Below are positions 6,898 to 60,733 of a stretch of 64,000 bases of DNA, in pieces. The stretch lies in assembly GCA_964016885.1 (NCBI GenBank), contig OZ024740.1:206026001-206090000 (forward strand), written 5' to 3'. Made by a program: the position numbers and the translations under genes. The notes under the pieces were generated by a model. That model was not told the DNA's origin. It saw only the letters and a list, made by a program, of their open reading frames with translations, and did not search any database. Source of the DNA: Eledone cirrhosa (taxonomy: Eukaryota). Numbering within the stretch: position 1 is the first letter of the stretch; every line of letters begins with the position of its first letter.

Positions 6898-7096
6898 TGT
6901 TTATGCAGATAAATCATTTGCTGACATCCACAAAGTGAAAGGAATACGCGGTGTTTACATTGCCTCCCAGTTTATGAACAACTCCTTCAATGTTGACAAC
7001 CAAATTAGTTTGATCACATTTAATAAAGGAGGTACATGGCGACCTCTATTGGCTCCTGAAAAAACCAAAGATGGAATGGTTTTAAATTGTTCTGTG
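6898..7096 (+). CDS. SORL1: SorLA exon (VPS10P), FADIHKVKGIRGVYIA...ITFNKGGTW...NCSV
   Basis: ttctag/gtaagt; Asp-box-like TFNKGGTW; phase 2-0. Confidence 0.95.
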
Positions 7097-7392
7097 GTAA
7101 GTAGGAATTCTCATTTTTATATTTTATTTATTGTGTGTAGCAAAAGAATATACCACATATATATGTGTCTAGAAGTTTTAGCTATTTTTTCTCTTGAAAA
7201 TATCCTTTGTAAAACCAGCATATAACTTATCTACTGGACCTACAAAGCCTGAATTTAAAATATATGGTGTTTTGTAAATGTTGTATGTAAAATGAAGGTG
7301 TGACTTATACATAAGTATATATATATATATATATATATAAACAAAGTGTTTTCTTGAAAAATCAAGTTGAGGTGTAAGTGTATTAGAATTTA

Positions 7393-7644
7393 TAGAATAT
7401 TGAGAAACTCGACACAAGGATAGCTGCCAAAACAGTAAAATGTTTTCGATGACGGCATTCGGTAAAAATCTGACCTCAAAGTACAGGAATAAACGGCTAG
7501 AAGTGTGTTGGTCCAGAGAAATTGTTGGTGCAGAGGAGTGCTTCTAGCCATTTTTGCCTGTCCTTTGAGGTAATATTTTACCCAACGCCATCATTGACAG
7601 CATTTTACTGTTTTGCCAGCAATCCTTGCGTTGATTTTCTCATT

Positions 7645-7650
<6 letters not shown>
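7393..7650. mobile_element. Foldback MITE with ~110-bp imperfect inverted arms, adjacent to (TA)n
   Basis: tagaatattgagaaactcgacacaaggatagctgccaaaacagtaaaatg pairs with cattttactgttttgccagcaatccttgcgttgattttctcattattcta. Confidence 0.8.
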
Positions 7651-7707
<57 letters not shown>

Positions 7708-7727
7708 TTAATACAAAGCATTGTGAG

Positions 7728-8172
7728 ATATGTAATAAAAGGCTGATCATTTTCAAAAAGCCAGTACAATGCTTTATAAAAATATAAAGGGCAAAAGATG
7801 ACAAATAAAATAAAACAATGTAATGTTTTACTCAATATATTTCAACATGTTATTTCAGGGCTTAGCCTCTTTTCAAATGTGGAGCTGAAACAGTTCAAAA
7901 CAAAATGAATGATCATTGTGTTCTTTCTTAACTGGCCTACATGTCTGAAATATGCATGTGTGAAGTCGTTATAGTAACCAGTTGGAGCGCACAGCACTCA
8001 CCGCCTGCTGCTCTTGTTCCTTCTCTGTAAGGATGATAGCCCTGAAATATCTTGTTGAAATATATTGGGTAAAACATTACTTTTTGTTTCGTTTTATTTG
8101 TCATCATTTGCCTTTTGTATTTTTCTACCACATTGTGCTGGCTTTTTGAAACTTATTGGTCTTTTATTATAT
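7728..8172. mobile_element. Foldback MITE with ~140-bp imperfect inverted arms
   Basis: ttcaaaaagccagtacaatg...atatatttcaacatg...tttcagggct pairs with agccctgaaa...tgttgaaatatat...cattgtgctggctttttgaa. Confidence 0.8.
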
Positions 8173-8348
8173 ATCAGTATCGGTAGAGGGTCGAACGCCA
8201 TGCTTTGACGCATAGTTACGGCCCTTGCCATTCTGAGTTCAAATTCCGCCGAGGTTAACTTTGCCTTTCATCCTTACGGGGTCGATAAAATAAAGTACCA
8301 GTAATGCACTGGGTAATTGCTGGCCTTGTGCCAAAAAGTAGAAACAAT

Positions 8349-8450
<102 letters not shown>

Positions 8451-10777
8451 CACACACACATCTATATGGGTTGTACCCTTTTTCCATGAAAATATGACAT
8501 GCAAAAGCAACAATTGATTTATTTACTGGATCTACAAAACCTCAAGTTTTTGTGTATCTAGTTTAACCTGTTGCTGTGCCAGATTTCTTTTCAGTAAAAT
8601 GACTATTTTTTTTAAAACAAACATTTATTAACAGCACAAGGCTTCAACATCATTCAAACTATATAGAAAAGCAGAAAAAACATCTTACCATTCAACTCAT
8701 ACGTGTTCAATAAGAATAACAATGACAAAAAAATCTCAAATGAGAAAAACCCATGCGTAATTTATTTGATAACCATATATCATATCTGAATGATCAATAA
8801 ACTAGTAACCCCATCTGGTTTTGAAGTTATGAACTGTTGGAAATGAGTTCAAACATTTTAGGACCAGTTATCTCATCTACGGCACTGAAAAGGTTAAAAG
8901 AGATACATCATATTTCTGTATGTCATATAAAGTGACTAAAAGGGTTGGCATCAGGAATGGCATCCAATTCTAAAGCTAGCCTTGAAAATGACCCTGTGAT
9001 TACTATGAATCTGTCATGGGGCCTCAGGGCTAAACTCTGCTTTAACAGTGAAAATGGCCTTAACATTTTTTTGATGTTGAATACTTGCATATAAGTCATA
9101 TCTTTTTCCATGAAAATCTGACGTGTAAAACTATAATTCAACTTATCAACTGGGCCTACAAAACCTTACCACAAAATATACAGTACATTGTAAATGTTGT
9201 ATATAAAATGAAGGTGCAACTTATACATGAATATATACAATAAATACTTTTAGCATAAAAACAGGCAGTAATGTTTAATTATATGTGACTTGAAAGAGAG
9301 GAGTATGTTGTGAAAAATGTCGCCCTATGAGAAAGACTCTGGAACATTGCTGTTGGTGGTTATTAGTTTATCAATGTGAATTGAAGAGGGATTTTGAATG
9401 ATTAGTTTTATAGTCCTGAACACGTCCCTTGTTAACTTGCTACTTCTCTGAATTGAGAGTCACAGCTCCGAATCTATGGGAATGTGGTTAGAATATCTCA
9501 GGAAAGAATCACTTGGCAGATTTTATGGGCAAAACCAACCAGCAGGAGACCCAGGGGTAGACCCCAAGCAAAATGGTCTTGCTTGGAGATACAGCTGGAT
9601 CAGTTGGAGATGGTTGCTTCTGACAGGACCTACTGGCAGGAATAAGTGGGAGAAGAAGAAGTAGAAGAATTGTTTACTGTTCAGTGTAGAATTGTGCAAT
9701 ATAGAATTCATTCTTTATTCTTCTTGTACTCAAGACTTGTTTTTCAAAATAGAGTTTTATACTTATTGTACTTTTCAAGAATGTCTTGTTAATATGGTTT
9801 CATGTGGTACAGGACATTGAATTAAATTACAAAACAAACAAACTAACTAAAACTTTTGTTATCTTTGTTTCAATGTTTTCTGTTTTAAATCACATTGAAT
9901 GTTGTCCCCCCCCCCCCCCACATACTTTAGTTCCTGTCGTTTTACTAGTTTCTCAGTTAATAGACCTTGTTTTCTGTGTTGTATCTTTTTTTTTTTAATA
10001 TATATATTTGGGGTGTCAATTACTGTGTTTCTGAATTTCCATTTTTTTAAAATTTAGTAGAAAGGTCATATTGAAAAGAGAAGGAAATAATTGTAATCTA
10101 CAGATTCAAAAATGTATCCCTGCAAAATTTCATTAAAAACATTTATCCTGTAATGATTGAGCAGAAAATATTTAAAAATGGATTTGTTTATCCAAATATT
10201 TATAGTATCTTTTCTAGTGGACAATAGGGATATTTGTCTGCTTCTACATCCACATTTGTGGGTCCCTATATATATATATATATATATCAACTAGAAATAG
10301 ATTGACATATATATATATATATAAAATAAATACATGAAACAATCACAGGGAATAATTTGTAAAGAATGTAGGCACACATAGCTAGGTAGGTAACTAATTA
10401 AAGTTTGACTAGAACTTCAAATATAAATACCTTTTAAAATGATTAATCTCCTTTGTATATATTTCTTTAAGTAAGAAATATATTTCACCTATTAATCCGT
10501 AAATCACAGTAGTTAAATTCTTGGATGTTCACCAAAGGAGAAGAAAAATAACCATCTGTGTTTACAAATCAAATGCAAATCTGCGAATGATTCGAACCAC
10601 GTGTTGCATTTTGTTAAAAATACACTCATTGAACAACGTCACCCCAGTGGCGTGAATAGGACCATCGACAGCCAGAAATAGCAGCCGAGCCTATTCAACT
10701 GAATTAGCTCAACAATCAAGGGGCCGTATATATATCCAAAATTAAAATTAAGGGTTGTCATGTCTGATATATATATA

Positions 10778-10913
10778 TATTAAAATAACAGATTAAAGTT
10801 TAAGCAAAGAATTGCTGCTTTCACCCTTAACGGGATCTTCTGAAGTTTCAGAAGATCTCGTTAAGGGTGAAAGCAGCGATTCTTTGCTTAAACTTTAATC
10901 TGTTATTTTAATA
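10778..10913. repeat. 136-bp palindrome (67-bp arms, 2-nt spacer, 2 mismatches)
   Basis: Arms compared base by base around the centre at 10845/10846. Confidence 0.95.
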
Positions 10914-11384
10914 AATATTTGCTCTACGGTTCTTATATATTTGATATATATCCTTATCGAGCCCTCTTTGTATTTTAGTCTTCAAATTTATTATTATTAC
11001 TATATATATATATATATACATTGTAAAAATGTGCATTATTAGAGTAAAGACTTGAATCTTTAATGTAATACAGTGATGGTGCTGTTTTGTACTTTTCAAT
11101 AATATCTTGCTTATGTGGTTTCATATGGTACAGGATATTAAGAGTTAGGGTTGAAGAAACAAAGTTAGGAGCAGGACACTAAACTGTGATTACACTTAGT
11201 TATTATGACCAAGATAATTATTATTACTTGTGTCATTATTACTACTTTCATTATTGTTAATAAATTAATAAACTTCACAGGTGAGTTTTTTTATAAGTAA
11301 ACATTATGCTGTAATAAAAAGACATTGCAATTATATAAATTACTCACTTTGCTTTCATCTTATTCTATTCGTTTCTTTGTGTAG

Positions 11385-11414
11385 TCATTTTACACTCACT
11401 GGTTTAGAAAGAAG
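11385..11414 (+). CDS. SORL1: Candidate 30-nt alternative microexon of SorLA (SFYTHWFRKK)
   Basis: Long pyrimidine tract plus tgtag acceptor, AAG|gtaatt donor, 10 sense codons in a phase-0 intron; TGCATG motifs downstream; no transcript evidence available. Confidence 0.6.
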
Positions 11415-11732
11415 GTAATTCTTTCCATTTAGATCACCTTTGCATGACAATAAACTCAGCAGCATGATTCCCTATCATTCAAAGTTATTTCAAAACTGTA
11501 TATAGATTATTATCATTATTATTAAAATGCAGTTGTAAATCTTAACAATCTATGCCAGTTAATATTTAAATTTGCTGCTAAAAACTTAGTTGATAGCATA
11601 TTTACAAAACATTAGTTTTGAATGTTCTATCTTTATGGTACATGAATATAGAATTTTTGTTGTATGCAAAATTCTGCATGTGTTTTGTTTAGCTCTTTAT
11701 TTTGTTTTTGTTTTGTTTTCCTCTCAGCTATA

Positions 11733-11947
11733 TTAACTCTTTAGCATTTAAACCGGCCATATCCAGCCAGAATTCTGCCACCTTTTTCTGTTCAAACTGG
11801 CTGCTCATACTGATGTTAAGGTATTGTTCTCAACATAAATAATATCAATCTCATAGATTTGATATTATGTGAGATAATTGTGAGGTAAAGCCTTTACCAT
11901 GAAAATATAATAGTAAATATAGAGTAATGTAAATGTTAAAGAGTTAA
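11733..11947 (+). mobile_element. piggyBac-type MITE (TTAA TSD, TIR ccctttagcattta, ~210 bp), representative copy
   Basis: Copies at 16788-17000, 29055-29240 (-), 31039-31254, 38296-38521 (-) and 62610-62827, all bounded by TTAA plus the TIR. Confidence 0.88.
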
Positions 11948-13679
11948 TATTGCCTGTTAGTTTATTTTGGAATATTGCACCAATGTCTCATTGATTATGT
12001 TTCATTGATCTGATTGATTTAATACTGTTAAGATCAATACTAGCAGTTGAAAACCACTATCTAAACATGCCATTATAAATCTTATTGCTTGTCTTGTTAT
12101 TTTATTGTTATTTTCCAAAACATGAGATTCATAATTCAAACTGAAAGCTTGAATGATAACTTGTTTGTTATTCTATATTGCTTTCAGTATATTTTATTTA
12201 CAAATAAAATCTCCTGCATGATTCTTTTCATTTCAATTTAAAACATTTTTCAAAAATGCCTTACAACATACATGATATCATCATCATTTTACATCCACTT
12301 TTCCTTGCTTACAAGGGTGGGACAATAAATGTTTATTTTCATAAGTTTTTACAAATAATTTTAGTAGAGCTTCCTTCACTGTTGTCAATAGAATTGGACT
12401 CACTAGACTGTAAAGTTCAGAATTATTGTGTAATTTTACTATTAACATTCTGTAATATCTTAGCAAAAAATACTTAAAAGAAAACAGATTTTCTCAATTC
12501 AAATGTTTGCAGTATCTATACTAGTGAACCAGTTATTGTGAAAATGTACAGTATTAGAGTAAAGACTTTGATTTTTCATGTGATGCAGTTATAGTGCTGT
12601 TTTGTAGTTTTTAAGGTTTGCTAATACAGTTTCATGTGGTTCAGGCATTGGGTTAATGGCTAACCTAGTTTAATGGTAGAGGTGCACAATCAAGGTTTTA
12701 GGGTCTTGGGTTCATAATCTTGAGGATGTGGTATTGATTTCTGGATGTTCCACATGTCTCCTTGAGCAAGACACTTCCCCACATGTTGCTTCACTCCACT
12801 CTGTTGAAAAACAATGAGTACCAACTCCAGTTAAGGGTTAATTAACTCTGCAATGAACTGGCATTCTGTTTTCTTCTCTCAGTCACTTAATGCTAACAAA
12901 ACCAGGATAAACTCTGCTTTAATGAACCTCGTAGTTCGGAATAGACATCAACTTTTTTTGGTGGTCTCTAAAGATTTTTTTTTTCTTAACCCATAACACC
13001 TGGTGGAGTTGTAGTGGAGCTGTCATGTCATACAGCATTTTAGGGGCATTTTTAAAACCTGCAAAGCCCATCCCCTCTCCAGGTCTAAATACAGCTGATT
13101 TCTTTCAGATAAGAGACATCATTATCATCATCATCATCATTTTACGTCCAGTTTTCCCTGCTTGCAAGGGTGGGACGGGAACTGATTCTGGCTTGATTTC
13201 TACAGCTGGATGCCCTTCCTAACACCAACCTCATTTACAGTGTGGGCTGGGTGCTTTTTTTGCCGTGGCACCTCCACGTCCACTTTGCAGTGGAATGATA
13301 TGGACCCCAGTCCCTATCATCTCATTTCTACAGCTGAGTAAACTGGAGCAATGTGAAATAAAGTGTCTTGCTCAAGGAAACAACACATCACCCGGTCTGA
13401 GAATTGAGACAATGAAAGAGAAAAATGAGAAAGAGATATTCTCTAAAGATTAGTTGTTGCTAATTCTAATTTTAACACAGACATGTCTTTTTCCATTAGA
13501 TGAGTCATCGTTAGAAACTCAACTGCTTAATGAAGATATTTTAATAGAAGTAACATATCTAATAATTGTTTCTACTTTTGGCACAAGGCCAGCAATTATC
13601 CCAGTGTATTACTGGTACTTTATTTTAACGACCCCGTAAGGATGAAAGGCAAAGTTAACCTGGGCGGGATATCTAATAA

Positions 13680-14767
13680 TGGCTAATCTTTCGTTTTAGG
13701 TACGTAAACAAAAAAAATCCAGAAAAACAAAAATTTATTTCAAAAGAAGCGAAATCTCACAGGAATATCTCACAAAGGATAATAACCCTAACCCTAACCC
13801 ATGATAATAACCCTAACCCTAACCCATGATAATAACCCTAACCCTAACCCATGATAATAACCCTAACCCTAACCCATGATAATAACCCTAACCCTAACCC
13901 ATGATAATAACCCTAACCCTAACCCATGATAATAACCCTAACCCTAACCCATGATAATAACCCTAACCCTAACCCATGATAATAACCCTAACCCTAACCC
14001 ATGATAATAACCCTAACCCTAACCCATGATAATAACCCTAACCCTAACCCATGATAATAACCCTAACCCTAACCCATGATAATAACCCTAACCCTAACCC
14101 ATGATAATAACCCTAACCCTAACCCATGATAATAACCCTAACCCTAACCCATGATAATAACCCTAACCCTAACCCATGATAATAACCCTAACCCTAACCC
14201 ATGATAATAACCCTAACCCTAACCCATGATAATAACCCTAACCCTAACCCATGATAATAACTCTAACCCTAACCCATGATAATAACCCTAACCCTAACCC
14301 ATGATAATAACCCTAACCCTAACCCATGATAATAACCCTAACCCTAACCCATGATAATAACTCTAACCCTAACCCATGATAATAACCCTAACCCTAACCC
14401 ATGATAATAACCCTAACCCTAACCCATGATAATAACTCTAACCCTAACCCATGATAATAACCCTAACCCTAACCCATGATAATAACTCTAACCCTAACCC
14501 ATGATAATAACCCTAACCCTAACCCATGATAATAACTCTAACCCTAACCCATGATAATAACTCTAACCCTAACCCATGATAATAACTCTAACCCTAACCC
14601 ATGATAATAACTCTAACCCTAACCCATGATAATAACTCTAACCCTAACCCATGATAATAACTCTAACCCTAACCCATGATATTTAAACTGACGGAAACCG
14701 AAACTTAGTGAAATTTAAACATATTCACAAAGTTTTATTTTACGTACCTAAAACGAAAGATTGCCCT
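13680..14767. mobile_element. TIR element (probable PIF/Harbinger-type MITE, TAA TSD) containing a telomere-like tandem array
   Basis: ~28-bp TIRs ggctaatctttcgttttaggtacgtaaa and tttacgtacctaaaacgaaagattgccc, with taa on both sides. Confidence 0.75.
13778..14680. repeat. 25-bp minisatellite (taaccctaaccctaacccatgataa)n, about 36 copies, each containing (TAACCC)3
   Basis: Directly visible; a taactc variant accumulates toward the 3-prime end. Confidence 0.97.
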
Positions 14768-14949
14768 AATAATGATTTCTTTTGAATATACAAAAATAGA
14801 TAGAGCATAAGAAATGAAATCAATCCCAGTATGTTACTGGTATTCAAACTATGAACAACAACTATCTTAAAAGTATTTGAAAGATAGACAACTATACAAA
14901 TGACTCATCGTCATCATCACCATCACCTTTTAACGTCCATTTTTCCATG

Positions 14950-15496
14950 GTGATCAGCCTGGTGCACTTTTGATCAGGTGTCAGAAGACCCACAGTGCAG
15001 AAACGTTCGCCATGCCAAATTCATTGTGCAGAATATTCTCAACTCTCTCACAAGATATGCTAATAGCATTGACTATTTGATTTATAGTCAATCGCCTGTC
15101 ATCCATCACCTTGTGGTGAACACAATCAATGTTCTCCTCGGTGGTAGCAGTTGCAGGATGTCCAGATCTTGGGTCATCGTCAAAACACTCACTTCCCCTC
15201 CTAAATTTAGTTCCCCACTTTTGCACTGTCGATAAAGCTGGAACGTCATCCCCTAATGTAACAACCATTTTCTGCAGGTACTTGATAACACCACAATGCC
15301 AAATTTTGTCCATTTTCAAGAGAAGTCACTACTAGTTACTTTTGAAGACTTCTTTGAACAGTCAGATGTCTGTTTACCTGGAAAGAAATAATGCAGTTAT
15401 TAATAAGAAAAGTTGAAATTAATGCATGCAAGATTTCACAGCTGTAGCATCACTCCTTCATAGTCAGATTATGAACTTTTCAGCCCACCATTGTAT
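14950..15496 (-). mobile_element. Mariner transposon 5-prime fragment (TIR plus N-terminal HTH transposase pseudogene)
   Basis: ORF 14981-15319 with KW..KF.RG..C.DDDPRSG.P, DRRLT and a degenerate WVP motif; a TIR-like tacaatggtgggctgaaaagtt lies at the right end. Confidence 0.85.
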
Positions 15497-17418
15497 GATA
15501 AACATTAATTGAAGCTTTCATGCTTGTAGCTTTCAACTGACCTAGAATTTAGAAGTTATATATAGCATAAGTATTTTTAAAATCTTTTTATTTTGTCAGT
15601 TAATAAATGCCAATGAATGAAGCAAAACAGAATTTTTTAATGAAATATAAGAAAGAAAAGATTTGTGAATTTAGGACTTGTAATTGTGAGAACACATCAG
15701 TTCAAAGTGAGATAAATATTTCAAAATAGGGCTTTATGATTTATAAATGAGAATAGCAATTTAAAAATTAGATTAATACAAAAATATTTGACGAGGATAT
15801 TTAAAAAGAGGAACGGAGCCAGAAATAACACTGTAACATCATTTGTAATGTCAATAATGTGAATTTGTCTGGTTAATAATTATAATTATTTATTTAGATA
15901 TTTAGCTATGTTTTCTATACAGAATTGTAATTTGATCCAACCAGCCTAACATTAGTTATGAAATCACCTGAGTTGGACACAAACCATCAACCTTGATTCA
16001 TAGAAGAAATATTATAAAACGTTTCTATATAAATGTTTTATAAATGTAACAGAATAAGATACTATTTAAGTTATTACTTAAGAAGCAAAGTTCAGATCCG
16101 ATGTCATTAATAATAAAACAAAAAATTCCTAACAAGGACTGAATATAATAGAATCAAATTCTCATTGTCACTGTTTCCGTCTCTCTCGCTCTTCCCATTT
16201 CTTATTTTTATAAGCAAATGGGGGTCCATAAGCTGGCCGCTCCTCGGCCCTGGTGGATAGAATAGAGAAGGCATTTCCCTGGAGGGTCAGTCCAGTAATG
16301 AGGCAAAAGCTTATCATCATTTAATGTCCATTTTCCCTGTAGTTGTAATATGTTTTCCGGTATATTTCAGGTGTAAGTATAAGAATGGCACTAATCTATG
16401 AGTATAACAATCTATGAGTTGACTACAAGCAACATTAGTCTCTTGTATCATTTTTTGTCAATGTTTACTTGATACTGTTTGTCTAGGCATTATAAAAAAC
16501 ACTGTTCAAAGCAAAGTTTAACTCTTAAATGGTTACATGTTGCATTGTGCCTAAAAAATGTTTGTGTAACGATTTTAGAAACTGCACACATCATCAGATT
16601 TTATCAATGCAATAATTCCATAGAAAACGAACTATTATGACTTTGATTAAAAAAGAGAGCTCTTTCTCTTTTGTTTTGTTTATAATATCATAATCTCCAA
16701 CAGATAAATCTTTCCTTGTTATAGTTTCTCTATGAGAAGATATATTATATATTCTTGGCTAATTCAATCAAGTAAGTTTATGTGTGTTTAACCTTTAGCA
16801 TTTAAACTGGCCATATCTGGCCTGAATTATCTCACCCCTTTCTGTTTAAACTGGCCATATTTGGCTGCTCATACTTATGTTAAGGTATTGTTCTCAAAAT
16901 AAATAATATCTAAATCTTGTAGATTCAATATTATGTGAGATAAAGTGTTTACTGTGAAAATGCAATAGTAAATATAGTGACGTAAATGCTAAAGAGTTAA
17001 GTGACATCCGCTCATTTTGAAATAACTTTTATCACATTGAAATGATATGGCCTACTCTGAAATAGTTACTTTTTTCTTTGAATTGATATATCCTCACTTA
17101 AAATTACAAATACTGTAAGGTCATTTTATTTTATGTGGTTCAACTAAAAAAACAAATAGTAGTTATTTTGTATTACAAAGCTCATATTATTTATATTATT
17201 TGAATTACAAAGCTTCAAATCCCTGCCTTTCAGCCTTACAGGGTTGATAAAATAAAGCACCAGTAGTGCACTGGGGTAATTGCTGACCTTGTGTCAAAAG
17301 TAGAAACAATTATTTGAATTAGAAAGCTCATATTTATATAAATTGTATTACAAAGCTCATATTATTTATATTATTTTGAATTACAAAGCTCATATTTCCA
17401 TTTTCTTGTATTTTACAG

Positions 17419-17607
17419 TGGCTTCACTGTTCTTTGCATGTAAGCCAAGAACTTGAACATCTTTACCCTAATAGCCATTTTGAGCCAATCCTCTCCAGAG
17501 AATCAGCACCAGGTCTTATTATTGCTTCTGGTACTATTGGTAGTCGTATTAAGCAATACAACCAAAATGTATTCCTATCTGTGGATGCTGGTCTTACTTG
17601 GCATGAG
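17419..17607 (+). CDS. SORL1: SorLA exon (VPS10P), WLHCSLH...PILSRESAPGLIIASG...SVDAGLTWHE
   Basis: ttacag/gtgaga; SAPGLIIA motif and Asp-box; phase 0-0. Confidence 0.96.
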
Positions 17608-18305: not shown

Positions 18306-18394
18306 ATCTTACTGGAAAAGCATTATTTCATCTTTGGTGACCATGGTGGTCTTATTGTGGCAATTAAGCAGTCGGTACTTACTGATACAATACT
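18306..18394 (+). CDS. SORL1: SorLA exon (VPS10P), ILLEKHYFIFGDHGGLIVAI
   Basis: ttatag/gtacgt; GDHGG motif; phase 0-2. Confidence 0.93.
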
Positions 18395-38038: not shown

Positions 38039-38155
38039 AATATCATCCATGTTCTGAAGGTAACTTCCGTTGTCCTAACATGCAGTGTATTCCACACCAC
38101 ATGCTCTGTAACCATGAAAATGACTGCAGTGATGGTTCTGATGAGAAAAATTGCA
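38039..38155 (+). CDS. SORL1: SorLA exon, LA repeat 2 (duplicate copy A1)
   Basis: ctacag/gtgagt; CSEGNFRCPNMQCIPHHMLCNHENDCSDGSDEKNC; phase 1-1. Confidence 0.9.
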
Positions 38156-41634: not shown

Positions 41635-41757
41635 CTTATCCATCATGTTCCTCTTCTGAATTCACCTGCTCTAATGGCCGTTGTATTCCTCTCAACTGGA
41701 CCTGTGACTTTGATGATGATTGCCATGATTATTCCGATGAAGCTAACTGTAAAGATG
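41635..41757 (+). CDS. SORL1: SorLA exon, LA repeat 3 (duplicate copy B1)
   Basis: ttacag/gtaagt; [35 protein letters not shown]; phase 1-1. Confidence 0.93.
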
Positions 41758-43756: not shown

Positions 43757-43873
43757 AATCTAATCAGTGTTCTGAAGGTAACTTTCATTGTCCTAACATG
43801 CAATGTATTCCACACCATTGGCTCTGTGACCATGAAAATGACTGCAGTGATGGTTCTGATGAGAGAAATTGCA
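43757..43873 (+). CDS. SORL1: SorLA exon, LA repeat 4 (duplicate copy A2)
   Basis: ctacag/gtgagt; CSEGNFHCPNMQCIPHHWLCDHENDCSDGSDERNC; phase 1-1. Confidence 0.93.
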
Positions 43874-45523: not shown

Positions 45524-45646
45524 CTTACCCATCATGCTCTTCTAATGAGTTTACCTGTGCCAATGGTCGCTGTATCAATTTAAACTGGACGTGTGATTTT
45601 GATGACGATTGCCATGATCACTCTGATGAAATTAACTGTAAAGATA
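45524..45646 (+). CDS. SORL1: SorLA exon, LA repeat 5 (duplicate copy B2)
   Basis: ttccag/gtaagt; [35 protein letters not shown]; phase 1-1. Confidence 0.93.
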
Positions 45647-49896: not shown

Positions 49897-52800
49897 GATT
49901 GTAAGCTCAACATCCTAAACACCTAGGCTATGATTGTAAGCCCAACATCCTAAACACCTAGGCTATGATTGTAAGCCCAACATCCTAAACACCTAGGCTA
50001 TGATTGTAAGCCCAACATCCTAAACACCTAGGCTATGATTGTAAGCCCAACATCCTAAAGACCTAGGCTATGATTGTAAGAACAACATCCTAAACGCCTA
50101 GGCTATGATTGTAAGCCCAACATCCTAAAGACCTAGGCTATGATTGTAAGAACAACATCCTAAACGCCTAGGCTATGATTGTAAGCCCAACATCCTAAAG
50201 ACCTAGGCTATGGTTGTAAGCCCAACATCCTAAACACCTAGGCTATGGTTGTAAGCCCAACATCCTAAACACCTAGGCTATGATTGTAAGCCCAACATCC
50301 TAAATGCCTAGGCTATGATTGTAAGCCAAACATCCAAATCACCTAGGCTATGATTGTAAGCCCAACATCCTAAACACCTAGGCTATGATTGTAAGCCCAA
50401 CATCCTAAACACCTAGGCTATGGTTGTAAGCCCAACATCCTAAACACCTAGGCTATGATTGTAAGCACAACACCCTAAACACCTAGGCTATGATTGTAAG
50501 CCCAACATCATAAACAGCTAGGCTATGATTGTAAGCCCAACATCGTAAACACCTACGCTATAATTGTAAGCCCAACATCCTAAACACCTAGGCTATGATT
50601 GTAAGCCAAACATCCAAATCACCTAGGCTATGATTGTAAGCCCAACATCCTAAACACCTAGGCTATGATTGTAAGCCCAACATCCTAAACACCTAGGCTA
50701 TGATTGTAAGCCCAACATCCTAAAAACCTAGGCTATGATTGTAAGCCCAACATCCTAAACACCTAGGCTATGGTTGTAAGCTCAACATCCTAAACGCCTA
50801 GGCTATGGTTGTAAGGCCAACATCCTAAACGCCTAGGCTATGGTTGTAAGGCCAACATCCTAAACGCCTAGGCTATGGTTGTAAGCCCAACATCCTAAAC
50901 ACCTAGGCTATGGTTGTAAGCCCAACATCCTAAACGCCTAGGCTATGGTTGTAAGGCCAACATCCTAAACGCCTAGGCTATGGTTGTAAGCCCAACATCC
51001 TAAACACCTAGGCTATGCTTGTAAGCCCAACATCCTAAATGCCTAGGCTATAATTGTAAGCCCAACATCCTAAACACCTAGGCTATGATTGTAAGCCCAA
51101 CATCCTAAACACCTAGGCTATGGTTGTAAGCCCAACATCCTAAACGCCTAGGCTATGGTTGCAAGGCCAACATCCTAAACACCTAGGCTATGATTGTAAG
51201 CCCAACATCCTAAACACCTAGGCTATGATTGTAAGCCCAACATCCTAAATGCCTAGGCTATAATTGTAAGCCCAACATCCTAAACACCTAGGCTATGGTT
51301 GTAAGCCCAACATCCTAAACACCTAGGCTATGGTTGTAAGCTCAACATCCTAAACACCTAGGCTATGATTGTAAGCCCAACATCCTAAACACCTAGGCTA
51401 TGGTTGTAAGCTCAACATCCTAAAAACCTAGGCTATGATTGTAAGCCCAACATCCTAAACACCTAGGCTATGATTGTAAGCCCAACATCCTAAATGCCTA
51501 GGCTATGGTTGTAAGCTCAACATCCTAAACACCTAGGCTATGATTGTAAGCCCAACATCCTAAACACCTAGGCTATGATTGTAAGCCCAACATCCTAAAC
51601 ACCTAGGCTATGGTTGTAAGCCCAAAATCCTAAACGCCTAGGCTATGGTTGTAAGCCCAACATCCTAAACACCTAGGCTATGGTTGTAAGCCCAACATCC
51701 TAAACACCTAGGCTATGGTTGTAAGCCCAACATCCTAAACGCCTAGGCTATGGTTGTAAGCCCAACATCCTAAACACCTAGGCTATGGTTGTAAGCCCAA
51801 CATCCTAAACGCCTAGGCTATGGTTGTAAGCCCAACATCCTAAACACCTAGGCTATAATTGTAAGCCCAACATCCTAAACACCTAGGCTATGATTGTAAG
51901 CCCAACATCCTAAACACCTAGGCTATGGTTGTAAGCCCAACATCCTAAACACCTAGGCTATGGTTGTAAGCCCAACATCCTAAACGCCTAGGCTATGGTT
52001 GTAAGCCCAACATCCTAAACACCTAGGCTATGGTTGTAAGCCCAACATCCTAAATGCCTAGGCTATGGTTGTAAGCCCAACATCCTAAACGCCTAGGCTA
52101 TGGTTGTAAGCCCAACATCCTAAACACCTAGGCTATGGTTGTAAGGCCAACATCCTAAACACCTAGGCTATGGTTGTAAGCCCAACATCCTAAACACCTA
52201 GGCTATGGTTGTAAGCCCAACATCCTAAACACCTAGGCTATGGTTGTAAGCCCAACATCCTAAACGCCTAGGCTATGGTTGTAAGGCCAACATCCTAAAC
52301 ACCTAGGCTATGGTTGTAAGGCCAACATCCTAAACACCTAGGCTATGGTTGTAAGCCCAACATCCTAAACACCTAGGCTATGGTTGTAAGCCCAACATCC
52401 TAAACGCCTAGGCTATGGTTGTAAGCCCAACATCCTAAACACCTAGGCTATGGTTGTAAGCCCAACATCCTAAACGCCTAGGCTATGGTTGTAAGCCCAA
52501 CATCCTAAATGCCTAGGCTATGGTTGTAAGCCCAACATCCTAAACACCTAGGCTATGGTTGTAAGCCCAACATCCTAAACGCCTAGGCTATGGTTGTAAG
52601 GCCAACATCCTAAACACCTAGGCTATGGTTGTAAGGCCAACATCCTAAACACCTAGGCTATGGTTGTAAGGCCAACATCCTAAACACCTAGGCTATGGTT
52701 GTAAGCCCAACATCCTAAACACCTAGGCTATGGTTGTAAGCCCAACATCCTAAACACCTAGGCTATGGTTGTAAGCCCAACATCCTAAACGCCTAGGCTA

Positions 52801-55800
52801 TGGTTGTAAGGCCAACATCCTAAACACCTAGGCTATGGTTGTAAGGCCAACATCCTAAACACCTAGGCTATGGTTGTAAGCCCAACATCCTAAACACCTA
52901 GGCTATGGTTGTAAGCCCAACATCCTAAACGCCTAGGCTATGGTTGTAAGCCCAACATCCTAAACACCTAGGCTATGGTTGTAAGCCCAACATCCTAAAC
53001 GCCTAGGCTATGGTTGTAAGCCCAACATCCTAAATGCCTAGGCTATGGTTGTAAGCCCAACATCCTAAACACCTAGGCTATGGTTGTAAGCCCAACATCC
53101 TAAACGCCTAGGCTATGGTTGTAAGGCCAACATCCTAAACACCTAGGCTATGGTTGTAAGCCCAACATCCTAAACACCTAGGCTATGGTTGTAAGCCCAA
53201 AATCCTAAACGCCTAGGCTATGGTTGTAAGCCCAACATCCTAAACACCTAGGCTATGGTTGTAAGCCCAACATCCTAAACGCCTAGGCTATGGTTGTAAG
53301 CCCAACATCCTAAATGCCTAGGCTATGGTTGTAAGCCCAACATCCTAAACACCTAGGCTATGGTTGTAAGCCCAACATCCTAAACGCCTAGGCTATGGTT
53401 GTAAGGCCAACATCCTAAACACCTAGGCTATGGTTGTAAGGCCAACATCCTAAACACCTAGGCTATGGTTGTAAGGCCAACATCCTAAACACCTAGGCTA
53501 TGGTTGTAAGCCCAACATCCTAAACACCTAGGCTATGGTTGTAAGCCCAACATCCTAAACACCTAGGCTATGGTTGTAAGCCCAACATCCTAAACGCCTA
53601 GGCTATGGTTGTAAGGCCAACATCCTAAACACCTAGGCTATGGTTGTAAGGCCAACATCCTAAACACCTAGGCTATGGTTGTAAGCCCAACATCCTAAAC
53701 ACCTAGGCTATGGTTGTAAGCCCAACATCCTAAACGCCTAGGCTATGGTTGTAAGCCCAACATCCTAAACACCTAGGCTATGGTTGTAAGCCCAACATCC
53801 TAAACGCCTAGGCTATGGTTGTAAGCCCAACATCCTAAATGCCTAGGCTATGGTTGTAAGCCCAACATCCTAAACACCTAGGCTATGGTTGTAAGCCCAA
53901 CATCCTAAACGCCTAGGCTATGGTTGTAAGGCCAACATCCTAAACACCTAGGCTATGGTTGTAAGCCCAACATCCTAAACACCTAGGCTATGGTTGTAAG
54001 CCCAAAATCCTAAACGCCTAGGCTATGGTTGTAAGCCCAACATCCTAAACACCTAGGCTATGGTTGTAAGCCCAACATCCTAAACGCCTAGGCTATGGTT
54101 GTAAGCCCAACATCCTAAACGCCTAGGCTATGGTTGTAAGCCCAACATCCTAAACACCTAGGCTATGGTTGTAAGCCCAACATCCTAAACACCTAGGCTA
54201 TGGTTGTAAGCCCAACATCCTAAACACCTAGGCTATGGTTGTAAGCCCAACATCCTAAACACCTAGGCTATGGTTGTAAGCCCAACATCCTAAACGCCTA
54301 GGCTATGGTTGTAAGCCCAACATCCTAAACGCCTAGGCTATGGTTGTAAGCCCAACATCCTAAACGCCTAGGCTATGGTTGTAAGCCCAACATCCTAAAC
54401 ACCTAGGCTATGGTTGTAAGCCCAACATCCTAAACGCCTAGGCTATGGTTGTAAGCCCAACATCCTAAACACCTAGGCTATGGTTGTAAGCCCAACATCC
54501 TAAACACCTAGGCTATGGTTGTAAGCCCAACATCCTAAACACCTAGGCTATGGTTGTAAGCCCAACATCCTAAACGCCTAGGCTATGGTTGTAAGCCCAA
54601 CATCCTAAACACCTAGGCTATGGTTGTAAGCCCAACATCCTAAACACCTAGGCTATGGTTGTAAGCCCAACATCCTAAACACCTAGGCTATGGTTGTAAG
54701 CCCAACATCCTAAACGCCTAGGCTATGGTTGTAAGCCCAACATCCTAAACACCTAGGCTATGGTTGTAAGCCCAACATCCTAAACACCTAGGCTATGGTT
54801 GTAAGCCCAACATCCTAAACACCTAGGCTATGGTTGTAAGGCCAACATCCTAAACACCTAGGCTATGGTTGTAAGCCCAACATCCTAAACGCCTAGGCTA
54901 TGGTTGTAAGGCCAACATCCTAAACACCTAGGCTATGATTGTAAGCCCAACATCCTAAATGCCTAGGCTATGGTTGTAAGCCCAACATCCTAAACACCTA
55001 GGCTATGATTGTAAGGCCAACATCCTAAACACCTAGGCTATGGTTGTAAGGCCAACATCCTAAACACCTAGGCTATGGTTGTAAGCCCAACATCCTAAAC
55101 GCCTAGGCTATGGTTGTAAGCCCAACATCCTAAACACCTAGGCTATGGTTGTAAGCCCAACATCCTAAACGCCTCGGCTATGGTTGTAAGGCCAACATCC
55201 TAAACACCTAGGCTATGGTTGTAAGGCCAACATCCTAAACACCTAGGCTATGGTTGTAAGCCCAACATCCTAAACGCCTAGGCTATGGTTGTAAGGCCAA
55301 CATCCTAAACACCTAGGCTATGGTTGTAAGCCCAACATCCTAAACACCTAGGCTATGGTTGTAAGGCCAACATCCTAAACACCTAGGCTATGGTTGTAAG
55401 GCCAACATCCTAAATGCCTAGGCTATGGTTGTAAGCCCAACATCCTAAACACCTAGGCTATGGTTGTAAGGCCAACATCCTAAACACCTAGGCTATGGTT
55501 GTAAGGCCAACATCCTAAATGCCTAGGCTATGATTGTAAGCCCAACATCCTAAATGCCTAGGCTATGGTTGTAAGCCCAACATCCTAAACACCTAGGCTA
55601 TGGTTGTAAGCCCAACATCCTAAATGCCTAGGCTATGGTTGTAAGGCCAACATCCTAAACACCTAGGCTATGGTTGTAAGGCCAACATCCTAAACACCTA
55701 GGCTATGGTTGTAAGGCCAACATCCTAAACACCTAGGCTATGGTTGTAAGCCCAACATCCTAAACACCTAGGCTATGGTTGTAAGGCCAACATCCTAAAC

Positions 55801-58800
55801 ACCTAGGCTATGGTTGTAAGGCCAACATCCTAAATGCCTAGGCTATGGTTGTAAGCCCAACATCCTAAACACCTAGGCTATGGTTGTAAGGCCAACATCC
55901 TAAACACCTAGGCTATGGTTGTAAGGCCAACATCCTAAATGCCTAGGCTATGATTGTAAGCCCAACATCCTAAATGCCTAGGCTATGGTTGTAAGCCCAA
56001 CATCCTAAACACCTAGGCTATGGTTGTAAGCCCAACATCCTAAATGCCTAGGCTATGGTTGTAAGGCCAACATCCTAAATGCCTAGGCTATGGTTGTAAG
56101 CCCAACATCCTAAACACCTAGGCTATGGTTGTAAGGCCAACATCCTAAACACCTAGGCTATGGTTGTAAGGCCAACATCCTAAATGCCTAGGCTATGATT
56201 GTAAGCCCAACATCCTAAATGCCTAGGCTATGGTTGTAAGCCCAACATCCTAAACACCTAGGCTATGGTTGTAAGCCCAACATCCTAAATGCCTAGGCTA
56301 TGGTTGTAAGGCCAACATCCTAAACACCTAGGCTATGGTTGTAAGCCCAACATCCTAAACGCCTAGGCTATGGTTGTAAGCCCAACATCCTAAACGCCTA
56401 GGCTATGGTTGTAAGGCCAACATCCTAAACACCTAGGCTATGGTTGTAAGCCCAACATCCTAAACACCTAGTCTATGGTTGTAAGCTCAACATCCTAAAC
56501 GCCTAGGCTATGGTTGTAAGCCCAACATCCTAAACACCTAGGCTATGGTTGTAAGGCCAACATCCTAAACACCTAGTCTATGGTTGTAAGCTCAACATCC
56601 TAAACGCCTAGGCTATGGTTGTAAGCCCAACATCCTAAACGCCTAGGCTATGGTTGTAAGCCCAACATCCTAAACGCCTAGGCTATGGTTGTAAGGCCAA
56701 CATCCTAAACGCCTAGGCTATGGTTGTAAGCCCAACATCCTAAACACCTAGTCTATGGTTGTAAGCTCAACATCCTAAACGCCTAGGCTATGGTTGTAAG
56801 CCCAACATCCTAAACACCTAGGCTATGGTTGTAAGGCCAACATCCTAAACACCTAGTCTATGGTTGTAAGCTCAACATCCTAAACGCCTAGGCTATGGTT
56901 GTAAGCCCAACATCCTAAACACCTAGGCTATGGTTGTAAGCCCAACATCCTAAACACCTAGTCTATGGTTGTAAGCTCAACATCCTAAACGCCTAGGCTA
57001 TGGTTGTAAGCCCAACATCCTAAACACCTAGGCTATGGTTGTAAGCCCAACATCCTAAACACCTAGGCTATGGTTGTAAGCCCAACATCCTAAACACCTA
57101 GGCTATGGTTGTAAGCCCAACATCCTAAACACCTAGGCTATGGTTGTAAGCCCAACATCCTAAACGCCTAGGCTATGGTTGTAAGCCCAACATCCTAAAC
57201 ACCTAGGCTATGGTTGTAAGCCCAACATCCTAAACACCTAGGCTATGGTTGTAAGCCCAACATCCTAAACACCTAGGCTATGGTTGTAAGCCCAACATCC
57301 TAAACGCCTAGGCTATGGTTGTAAGCCCAACATCCTAAACACCTAGGCTATGGTTGTAAGCCCAACATCCTAAACACCTAGGCTATGGTTGTAAGGCCAA
57401 CATCCTAAACACCTAGGCTATGGTTGTAAGCCCAACATCCTAAACGCCTAGGCTATGGTTGTAAGGCCAACATCCTAAACACCTAGGCTATGATTGTAAG
57501 CCCAACATCCTAAATGCCTAGGCTATGGTTGTAAGCCCAACATCCTAAACACCTAGGCTATGATTGTAAGGCCAACATCCTAAACACCTAGGCTATGGTT
57601 GTAAGGCCAACATCCTAAACACCTAGGCTATGGTTGTAAGCCCAACATCCTAAACGCCTAGGCTATGGTTGTAAGCCCAACATCCTAAACACCTAGGCTA
57701 TGGTTGTAAGCCCAACATCCTAAACGCCTAGGCTATGGTTGTAAGGCCAACATCCTAAACACCTAGGCTATGGTTGTAAGGCCAACATCCTAAACACCTA
57801 GGCTATGGTTGTAAGCCCAACATCCTAAACGCCTAGGCTATGGTTGTAAGGCCAACATCCTAAACACCTAGGCTATGGTTGTAAGGCCAACATCCTAAAC
57901 ACCTAGGCTATGGTTGTAAGCCCAACATCCTAAACACCTAGGCTATGGTTGTAAGCCCAAAATCCTAAACGCCTAGGCTATGGTTGTAAGCCCAACATCC
58001 TAAACACCTAGGCTATGGTTGTAAGCCCAACATCCTAAACGCCTAGGCTATGGTTGTAAGGCCAACATCCTAAACACCTAGGCTATGGTTGTAAGCCCAA
58101 CATCCTAAACACCTAGGCTATGGTTGTAAGGCCAACATCCTAAACACCTAGGCTATGGTTGTAAGGCCAACATCCTAAATGCCTAGGCTATGGTTGTAAG
58201 CCCAACATCCTAAACACCTAGGCTATGGTTGTAAGGCCAACATCCTAAACACCTAGGCTATGGTTGTAAGGCCAACATCCTAAATGCCTAGGCTATGATT
58301 GTAAGCCCAACATCCTAAATGCCTAGGCTATGGTTGTAAGCCCAACATCCTAAACACCTAGGCTATGGTTGTAAGCCCAACATCCTAAATGCCTAGGCTA
58401 TGGTTGTAAGGCCAACATCCTAAACACCTAGGCTATGGTTGTAAGGCCAACATCCTAAACACCTAGGCTATGGTTGTAAGGCCAACATCCTAAACACCTA
58501 GGCTATGGTTGTAAGCCCAACATCCTAAACACCTAGGCTATGGTTGTAAGGCCAACATCCTAAACACCTAGGCTATGGTTGTAAGGCCAACATCCTAAAT
58601 GCCTAGGCTATGGTTGTAAGCCCAACATCCTAAACACCTAGGCTATGGTTGTAAGGCCAACATCCTAAACACCTAGGCTATGGTTGTAAGGCCAACATCC
58701 TAAATGCCTAGGCTATGATTGTAAGCCCAACATCCTAAATGCCTAGGCTATGGTTGTAAGCCCAACATCCTAAACACCTAGGCTATGGTTGTAAGCCCAA

Positions 58801-60733
58801 CATCCTAAATGCCTAGGCTATGGTTGTAAGGCCAACATCCTAAATGCCTAGGCTATGGTTGTAAGCCCAACATCCTAAACACCTAGGCTATGGTTGTAAG
58901 GCCAACATCCTAAACACCTAGGCTATGGTTGTAAGGCCAACATCCTAAATGCCTAGGCTATGATTGTAAGCCCAACATCCTAAATGCCTAGGCTATGGTT
59001 GTAAGCCCAACATCCTAAACACCTAGGCTATGGTTGTAAGCCCAACATCCTAAATGCCTAGGCTATGGTTGTAAGGCCAACATCCTAAACACCTAGGCTA
59101 TGGTTGTAAGCCCAACATCCTAAACGCCTAGGCTATGGTTGTAAGCCCAACATCCTAAACGCCTAGGCTATGGTTGTAAGGCCAACATCCTAAACACCTA
59201 GGCTATGGTTGTAAGCCCAACATCCTAAACACCTAGTCTATGGTTGTAAGCTCAACATCCTAAACGCCTAGGCTATGGTTGTAAGCCCAACATCCTAAAC
59301 ACCTAGGCTATGGTTGTAAGGCCAACATCCTAAACACCTAGTCTATGGTTGTAAGCTCAACATCCTAAACGCCTAGGCTATGGTTGTAAGCCCAACATCC
59401 TAAACGCCTAGGCTATGGTTGTAAGCCCAACATCCTAAACGCCTAGGCTATGGTTGTAAGGCCAACATCCTAAACGCCTAGGCTATGGTTGTAAGCCCAA
59501 CATCCTAAACACCTAGTCTATGGTTGTAAGCTCAACATCCTAAACGCCTAGGCTATGGTTGTAAGCCCAACATCCTAAACACCTAGGCTATGGTTGTAAG
59601 GCCAACATCCTAAACACCTAGTCTATGGTTGTAAGCTCAACATCCTAAACGCCTAGGCTATGGTTGTAAGCCCAACATCCTAAACACCTAGGCTATGGTT
59701 GTAAGCCCAACATCCTAAACACCTAGTCTATGGTTGTAAGCTCAACATCCTAAACGCCTAGGCTATGGTTGTAAGCCCAACATCCTAAACACCTAGGCTA
59801 TGGTTGTAAGGCCAACATCCTAAACACCTAGTCTATGGTTGTAAGCTCAACATCCTAAACGCCTAGGCTATGGTTGTAAGCCCAACATCCTAAACGCCTA
59901 GGCTATGGTTGTAAGCCCAACATCCTAAACGCCTAGGCTATGGTTGTAAGCCCAACATCCTAAACGCCTAGGCTATGGTTGTAAGGCCAACATCCTAAAC
60001 ACCTAGGCTATGGTTGTAAGCCCAACATCCTAAACGCCTAGGCTATGGTTGTAAGGCCAACATCCTAAACACCTAGGCTATGGTTGTAAGCCCAACATCC
60101 TAAACACCTAGTCTATGGTTGTAAGCTCAACATCCTAAACGCCTAGGCTATGGTTGTAAGCCCAACATCCTAAAGACCTAGGCTATGGTTGTAAGGCCAA
60201 CATCCTAAACACCTAGTCTATGGTTGTAAGCTCAACATCCTAAATGCCTAGGCTATGGTTGTAAGCCCAACATCCTAAACACCTAGGCTATGGTTGTAAG
60301 GCCAACATCCTAAACACCTAGTCTATGGTTGTAAGCTCAACATCCTAAACACCTAGGCTATGGTTGTAAGCCCAACATCCTAAACGCCTAGGCTATGGTT
60401 GTAAGGCCAACATCCTAAACACCTAGGCCATGGTTGTAAGCCCAACATCCTAAACGCCTAGGCTATGGTTGTAAGGCCAACATCCTAAACACCTAGGCTA
60501 TGGTTGTAAGCCCAACATCGTAAACACCTACGCTATAATTGTAAGCCCAACATCCTAAACACCTAGGCTATGGTTGTAAGCCCAACATCCTAAATGCCTA
60601 GGCTATGATTGTAAGCCCAACATCCTAAACACCTAGGCTATGGTTGTAAGCCCAACATCCTAAACACCTAGGCTATGGTTGTAAGCCCAACATCCTAAAC
60701 ACCTAGGCTATGATTGTTAGCCCAACATCCTAA
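49897..60733. repeat. 35-bp satellite (acctaggctatggttgtaagcccaacatcctaaac)n, about 310 copies, derived from a SINE head
   Basis: Period of 35 throughout; continuous with a minus-strand SINE family B copy at its left edge. Confidence 0.98.

Follow-up and report, generated by a model that had tools for sequence, protein, structure and literature searches.

The 64,000-nt window analyzed here, the whole stretch taken from contig OZ024740.1 of Eledone cirrhosa, raises the question of whether a long intron in the gene for SorLA holds an exon of only 30 nt, and if so when that exon is used and what it does to the protein. The original prediction placed such a microexon, encoding SFYTHWFRKK, in a disulfide loop of the VPS10P domain. 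We find that positions 11385-11414 are a real, optional, frame-preserving exon in that loop. In octopods this cassette exon is probably used mainly in neurons, where it would alter cargo choice or cargo release by the VPS10P tunnel.

The host intron (7097-17418) is 10,322 nt in length. The upstream exon (6898-7096, plus strand) ends in phase 0 at a gtaagt donor, two residues past the first cysteine of loop L2, and the second cysteine of L2 is the fourth residue encoded by the downstream exon (17419-17607, plus strand). Human SorLA is matched by both the upstream (E 1e-14) and the downstream exon (E 1e-10), and residues 321-1494 of Octopus bimaculoides SorLA are collinear with the window at approximately 86-87% amino acid identity in tblastn hits. 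These matches and the fold described below identify the gene as SorLA/SORL1, a receptor built of a VPS10P propeller and 10CC followed by a YWTD propeller, EGF, LDLa repeats and Fn3, with the Fn3 part of the protein lying beyond the window. The Atlas family search returned VPS10 families alone. Single-exon protein searches, limited to targets of at most 2,000 amino acids, gave no matches and carry no evidence, as SorLA is longer than that limit. In the 3.0-Gb genome the region 11300-11500 has a single match, which rules out a repeat origin for it, and the upstream exon has one close match. A weaker match to the upstream exon (48%; locus L004, C15:17897580-17897708) probably belongs to another gene of the VPS10P family. 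Two satellites lie in introns of the SorLA gene: a 25-nt repeat with a TAACCC-like core downstream of the microexon in the same intron (13778-14681, approximately 900 nt, 36 copies), and a 35-nt repeat covering 10.8 kb (49899-60733, 310 copies, 95% matches).

The microexon (11385-11414, plus strand) is free of stop codons, begins and ends in phase 0, and is flanked by AG and GT, consistent with the usual description of a cassette microexon as frame-preserving and no longer than 51 nt. Its acceptor is tgtag, with the last base at 11384, and its donor is gtaatt following AAG. On the same strand, a sequence scan delimits a 61-nt zone upstream of the acceptor that contains no AG (11322-11382) and includes both a predicted branch-point-like tactcac (11341-11347) and the pyrimidine tract; a TGC (11350-11352) lies upstream of the tract. 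Downstream are two proximal RBFOX-type motifs, TGCATG at 11441 and GCATG at 11462 (together 11441-11466), a distal TGCATG (11675-11680), and a further TGCATG (12215-12220), found by motif scan, 800 nt from the exon. Exon borders, splice sites and motifs all lie exactly where the original prediction had placed them.

Scored with matrices trained on the same gene (18 acceptors and 16 donors), the acceptor is weak (1.3 bits) and the donor typical (7.5 bits). The summed score is equalled or exceeded by 237 AG..GT pairs on the plus strand of the window, and splice-site scores by themselves do not single out the microexon among these pairs. Its combination of features is more distinctive. The 3' splice-site region is 79% pyrimidine, and its 61-nt AG-free zone compares with zones of 5-60 nt at the 18 constitutive acceptors. 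On the two strands together, 2,947 YAG..GT pairs enclose 3-51 nt in frame and without a stop; the microexon is the sole survivor among them when a donor of at least 6 bits, an AG-free zone of at least 40 nt and at least 75% pyrimidines are demanded together, with thresholds chosen with the candidate in view. An AG within the exon would also permit a 7-nt, frameshifting version (11408-11414), the acceptor of which scores higher (4.8 bits) than the true one.

Evidence that the exon is optional comes from transcripts and from protein models. The downstream exon was found in six sequencing runs, none catalogued as RNA, and five of these were aligned. Run X4 from E. cirrhosa, for which no tissue is on record, proved on alignment to be spliced RNA and yielded a 3,519-nt contig in which position 7096 is joined to 17419 with no differences; it spans 17418-17607, with the tail of the upstream exon ahead of this stretch and the exon at 18306 after it. 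The inclusion junction was not seen in this single run of E. cirrhosa RNA. No alignment from runs X4 and X5 covers the microexon, which carries no evidence, as sequences of only 30 nt can escape alignment and assembled contigs drop minor forms. Inclusion is documented in relatives. The identical peptide is present in five of the eleven proteins of the Octopus cluster and absent from the other six, and the insert of the O. bimaculoides X1 isoform maps onto 11385-11414 at all ten residues. Isoforms X1 and X2 differ solely by these ten residues in both O. bimaculoides and O. sinensis, and both forms are also found in O. vulgaris. The original prediction held that gene predictors would miss the exon. 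This was mistaken, since the exon is present, unlabelled, in the RefSeq X1 models of O. bimaculoides (XP_014768390.1) and O. sinensis (XP_029636779.1). Among 1.84 billion protein representatives, a profile-free search returned a full-length Argonauta SorLA that does not have the insert.

The exon is also found in decapods. In a cuttlefish-type (Acanthosepion pharaonis) cluster, four of eleven proteins, on 17 contigs, have an insert identical at seven of ten residues; six do not have it (five Logan proteins on 20 contigs and one gene model), and the remaining one is a fragment that does not reach the loop. The Logan proteins, both with and without the insert, derive from contigs of approximately 7 kb, a length from which we infer spliced RNA. 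Either form can be the one assembled, which fits switching between samples. Because the cuttlefish-type proteins share the insert, the exon predates the split of octopods and decapods, which took place some 250-300 million years ago.

We compared the region with DNA of a relative, designated organism C (run X6), which aligns over 11217-11424 and 11551-11681. Between zero and two changes fall in the 53 nt at 11372-11424, compared with 32 substitutions in 242 flanking nt (binomial P between 0.0005 and 0.022). The range reflects the first aligned piece, in which 19 listed substitutions all lie within 11250-11371 and two unlisted ones are necessarily near one of the ends of the piece. Thus the exon core is kept in organism C and the peptide is kept fully in Octopus and largely in the cuttlefish type, which is the conservation among relatives that the original prediction had named as its check. 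The putative regulatory motifs change from one species to another. Organism C has TGA in place of the TGC at 11350-11352, and 27 unrelated nucleotides stand where 11425-11550, including the motifs at 11441 and 11462, would be. One base of the branch-point-like tactcac also differs there. The distal TGCATG is probably kept; it ends one nucleotide before the aligned piece does (11681), and differences near the ends of pieces are not listed.

These comparisons leave little room for the view that in E. cirrhosa 11385-11414 is merely a pseudo-exon or a product of noisy splicing. The weak acceptor, and RNA from this species that showed skipping alone, could be read in that way. However, a peptide identical at ten of ten positions in three Octopus species, where the aligned exons are only about 86-87% identical in protein, and an exon core that is more conserved in organism C than its intron both argue against noise, which we consider very improbable. 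The microexon is almost certainly used in E. cirrhosa.

Optional inserts at the same site are found here for the first time in a scallop and a limpet. The X1 and X2 isoforms of Pecten maximus differ at the microexon site alone, by nine amino acids, and isoforms of Patella caerulea differ there alone by eight; these were two of ten further isoform pairs compared. Isoform pairs from oysters, shrimp, Lineus and Lingula differ elsewhere or by something other than an insert. Oysters have a different optional insert of nine amino acids near residue 1312 (P0194-P0197, P0203, P0205), Penaeus has one of two or ten amino acids near 1232 (P0106, P0209, P0210), and Lineus has one of four amino acids at 354 (P0153, P0176). 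The loop could be parsed in 44 of 53 representatives of at least 480 amino acids, 28 of which have five residues between the cysteines. A fifteen-residue loop occurs in three representatives, all of them gastropods (Gigantopelta, Haliotis and Aplysia), Pinctada has ten residues between the cysteines, and oysters have a seven-residue loop in all nine proteins where the loop was found. Gigantopelta, Haliotis, Aplysia and Pinctada are each represented by one isoform, as protein only. When cut at the cephalopod borders, each of the eight mollusc inserts has K, Q or E as its last residue, as encoded at the end of a phase-0 exon terminating in AG. The insert ends fit exon status, of which they are the sole sign in the four single-isoform species.

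Whether these inserts descend from one exon is less clear than their shared position. Insert sequences have diverged widely from one mollusc class to another, yet positional similarity across all eight inserts exceeds that of shuffled sequences (P = 0.003 left-aligned, 0.0006 right-aligned), with the common last residue being partly a splice-site effect. Of three subsets, the two that omit Gigantopelta and the cuttlefish type show no similarity above shuffles (P 0.08-0.38). Alternatively, a single intron tolerant of new exons may have gained inserts separately in cephalopods, gastropods and bivalves (type I convergence). The differing lengths (5, 8, 9 and 10 amino acids) and the weak likeness between inserts suit that account, as does a report that neural exons often converge at the same position (10.64898/2026.09.05.749416). 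However, the length of ten residues is shared by cephalopods and three gastropods, tryptophan is at position 6 in four of five such inserts, F2, F7 and K9 are common to Octopus and Pecten, and the isoform sets of Lingula, Lineus and Penaeus have no insert at the site. Separate gains are a serious possibility to which we give somewhat less than even weight, and one old, diverged exon is the likelier origin. Separate gains would bear on origin alone and are compatible with a neural or cargo-related function.

The consequence for the protein depends on loop L2. Skipping leaves the Cys-X5-Cys arrangement of human SorLA, as the original prediction had noted for vertebrates, and inclusion lengthens the disulfide-closed part of L2 from five to fifteen residues. 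In 3wsx the counterparts of the two cysteines are chain positions 439 and 445, which a 28-residue offset would equate with human C467 and C473. According to PMC12667055, C467 and C473 are located in loop L2 of SORL1, which presses the ligand onto the tunnel wall; L1 and L2, found in SORL1 alone, bind ligand and let it go at low pH. Among the variants seen in Alzheimer's cases, the same source includes C467Y and C473S. For the O. bimaculoides inclusion form alone, an AlphaFold2 model built from 40 sequences has a pLDDT of 88.6 and most closely matches human SorLA (3wsy, TM 0.90). The insert (384-393) is the sole internal segment below 50, and its place relative to the tunnel is not confidently set by the model. 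The propeller is thus predicted to fold normally and to tolerate the insert as a flexible surface segment. We consider it an even chance that the aromatic and basic insert changes the grip of L2 on cargo or partly covers the mouth of the tunnel.

The ligand-binding region appears to vary in a second way: Octopus isoforms lacking exactly 80 amino acids, corresponding to two LDLa repeats, are found in O. sinensis (X3) and O. vulgaris. In the window, LDLa exons at 38039-38155, 41635-41757, 43757-43873 and 45524-45646 form a tandem-duplicated pair with 90% and 79% nucleotide identity.

A neural program of inclusion is suggested by the 3' splice-site region. Targets of the eMIC domain in flies and mammals are described in two sources as having a weak acceptor, a long AG-free zone and a distant branch point (10.1101/2021.02.24.432780, 10.1101/2024.09.17.613571), and the microexon has this layout (1.3 bits, 61 nt, 79% pyrimidine). 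The weak acceptor and distant branch point would favor skipping by default; in neurons, inclusion would be turned on by Srrm234-eMIC as activator, with RBFOX as a possible helper. The genome contains an exon matching SRRM_C, the eMIC-type end of Srrm234 (29.3 bits, cut-off 27; locus L002, C22:28167743-28167880, minus strand). A family search for Fox-1_C returned no match, which is not proof of absence. The UGC signature put forward in the original prediction is weakened: a single TGC is present 33-35 nt upstream of the exon, but it is ahead of the tract rather than between the tract and the AG, and is lost in organism C. In one of these sources, UGC is found in 79% and 74% of SRRM3/4 targets, leaving about a quarter without it (10.1101/2024.09.17.613571). 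The RBFOX signature fared similarly. Three GCATG within 300 nt downstream are an enrichment at the rate of the window (Poisson P approximately 0.001), but organism C lacks two near motifs and probably keeps the third. By analogy with eMIC targets, we judge neural inclusion to be the probable mode of regulation.

Two other readings accept the exon as real and differ over where it is used or what the insert does. The switch could be non-neural, with inclusion in muscle or heart, where RBFOX also acts, or at middling levels across many tissues. The cluster of RBFOX-type motifs, the atypical and unconserved UGC, and a Snap23 microexon described as controlled by RBFOX2 in striated muscle (PMC12064062) are in keeping with such a switch. 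We nonetheless think it unlikely, as the 3' splice-site layout fits eMIC targets, some of which do without UGC, and organism C keeps the exon while losing the proximal RBFOX motifs. Alternatively, a regulated insert could have its role away from the tunnel: it might offer a new surface to which partners, membranes or glycans bind, affect receptor dimerization, or form a protease-sensitive loop. An insert that is predicted to be flexible and exposed, that is aromatic and basic, and that varies between classes in length (5-10 amino acids) and in sequence would suit a spacer better than a fixed motif. Set against this are its position within L2, the very loop said to push ligand onto the wall of the tunnel (PMC12667055), and the lack of fit to two specific activities. 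Furin cuts after the consensus R-X-K/R-R. The insert ends in F-R-K-K before W, with no arginine at P1, and in F-L-K-K in the cuttlefish type, which eliminates the furin or proprotein convertase site and leaves the basic cleavage site of the original prediction unsupported. No amphipathic helix signal was found in the insert, its hydrophobic moment being reached by 36-44% of shuffles. Action outside the tunnel is, in our assessment, quite unlikely.

Neuronal use with an effect on tunnel cargo remains our preferred reading, and the isoform pair has value as a tool. SorLA is an Alzheimer's risk gene in which L2, specific to its VPS10P domain, governs the grip on ligand and its release (PMC12667055), and a natural pair of isoforms that differ by ten L2 residues alone is a ready test of loop function. 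The exon also offers a clean marker of how cephalopod nervous systems regulate microexons, as well as a test case for deep conservation versus repeated gain at one intron. More speculatively, and with considerable doubt, molluscs may have kept a neuron-specific L2 switch since before cephalopods, snails and bivalves split, giving neurons a different cargo range or release pH. If true, this would be a natural experiment on a loop in which human Alzheimer's cases carry cysteine substitutions.

The exon belongs to a well-known splicing class but is itself apparently undescribed. The RefSeq Octopus X1 models, which belong to other octopods, have the identical ten-residue insert at the same site, but they were generated automatically and say nothing about the exon, how it is regulated or what it does. 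We found no paper on it in the openly accessible literature on SORL1/SorLA splicing, cephalopod microexons and mollusc SorLA. It resembles eMIC neural microexons in its short in-frame length, its weak acceptor with a distant branch point, its long AG-free zone and its surface insert, and in a genome that also has a regulator-type SRRM_C exon. It differs in its atypical and unconserved UGC and, depending on the definition used, in its length: 30 nt exceeds a limit of 3-27 nt and falls within limits of 30 or 51 nt. Human SORL1 is also alternatively spliced (delta-2, delta-19, 38b and SORL1-B/F), and delta-2 likewise changes VPS10P. However, as far as the accessible text of PMC2776013 and PMC7306921 goes, those variants remove exons or truncate the protein, whereas the mollusc exon is an insertion; when the 46 internal exons were all scanned by PCR in human brain, skipping of exons 2 and 19 alone was reported, and an in-frame L2 insert is unmentioned there. 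The closest structural counterpart is L2 of the human SorLA VPS10P domain (3WSX, 3WSY, 3WSZ), which has the same fold and the Cys-X5-Cys spacing of the mollusc skipped form, and in which loss of either cysteine is found in Alzheimer's cases (PMC12667055). In contrast to the human loop, that of molluscs can be stretched to X10-X15 by splicing.
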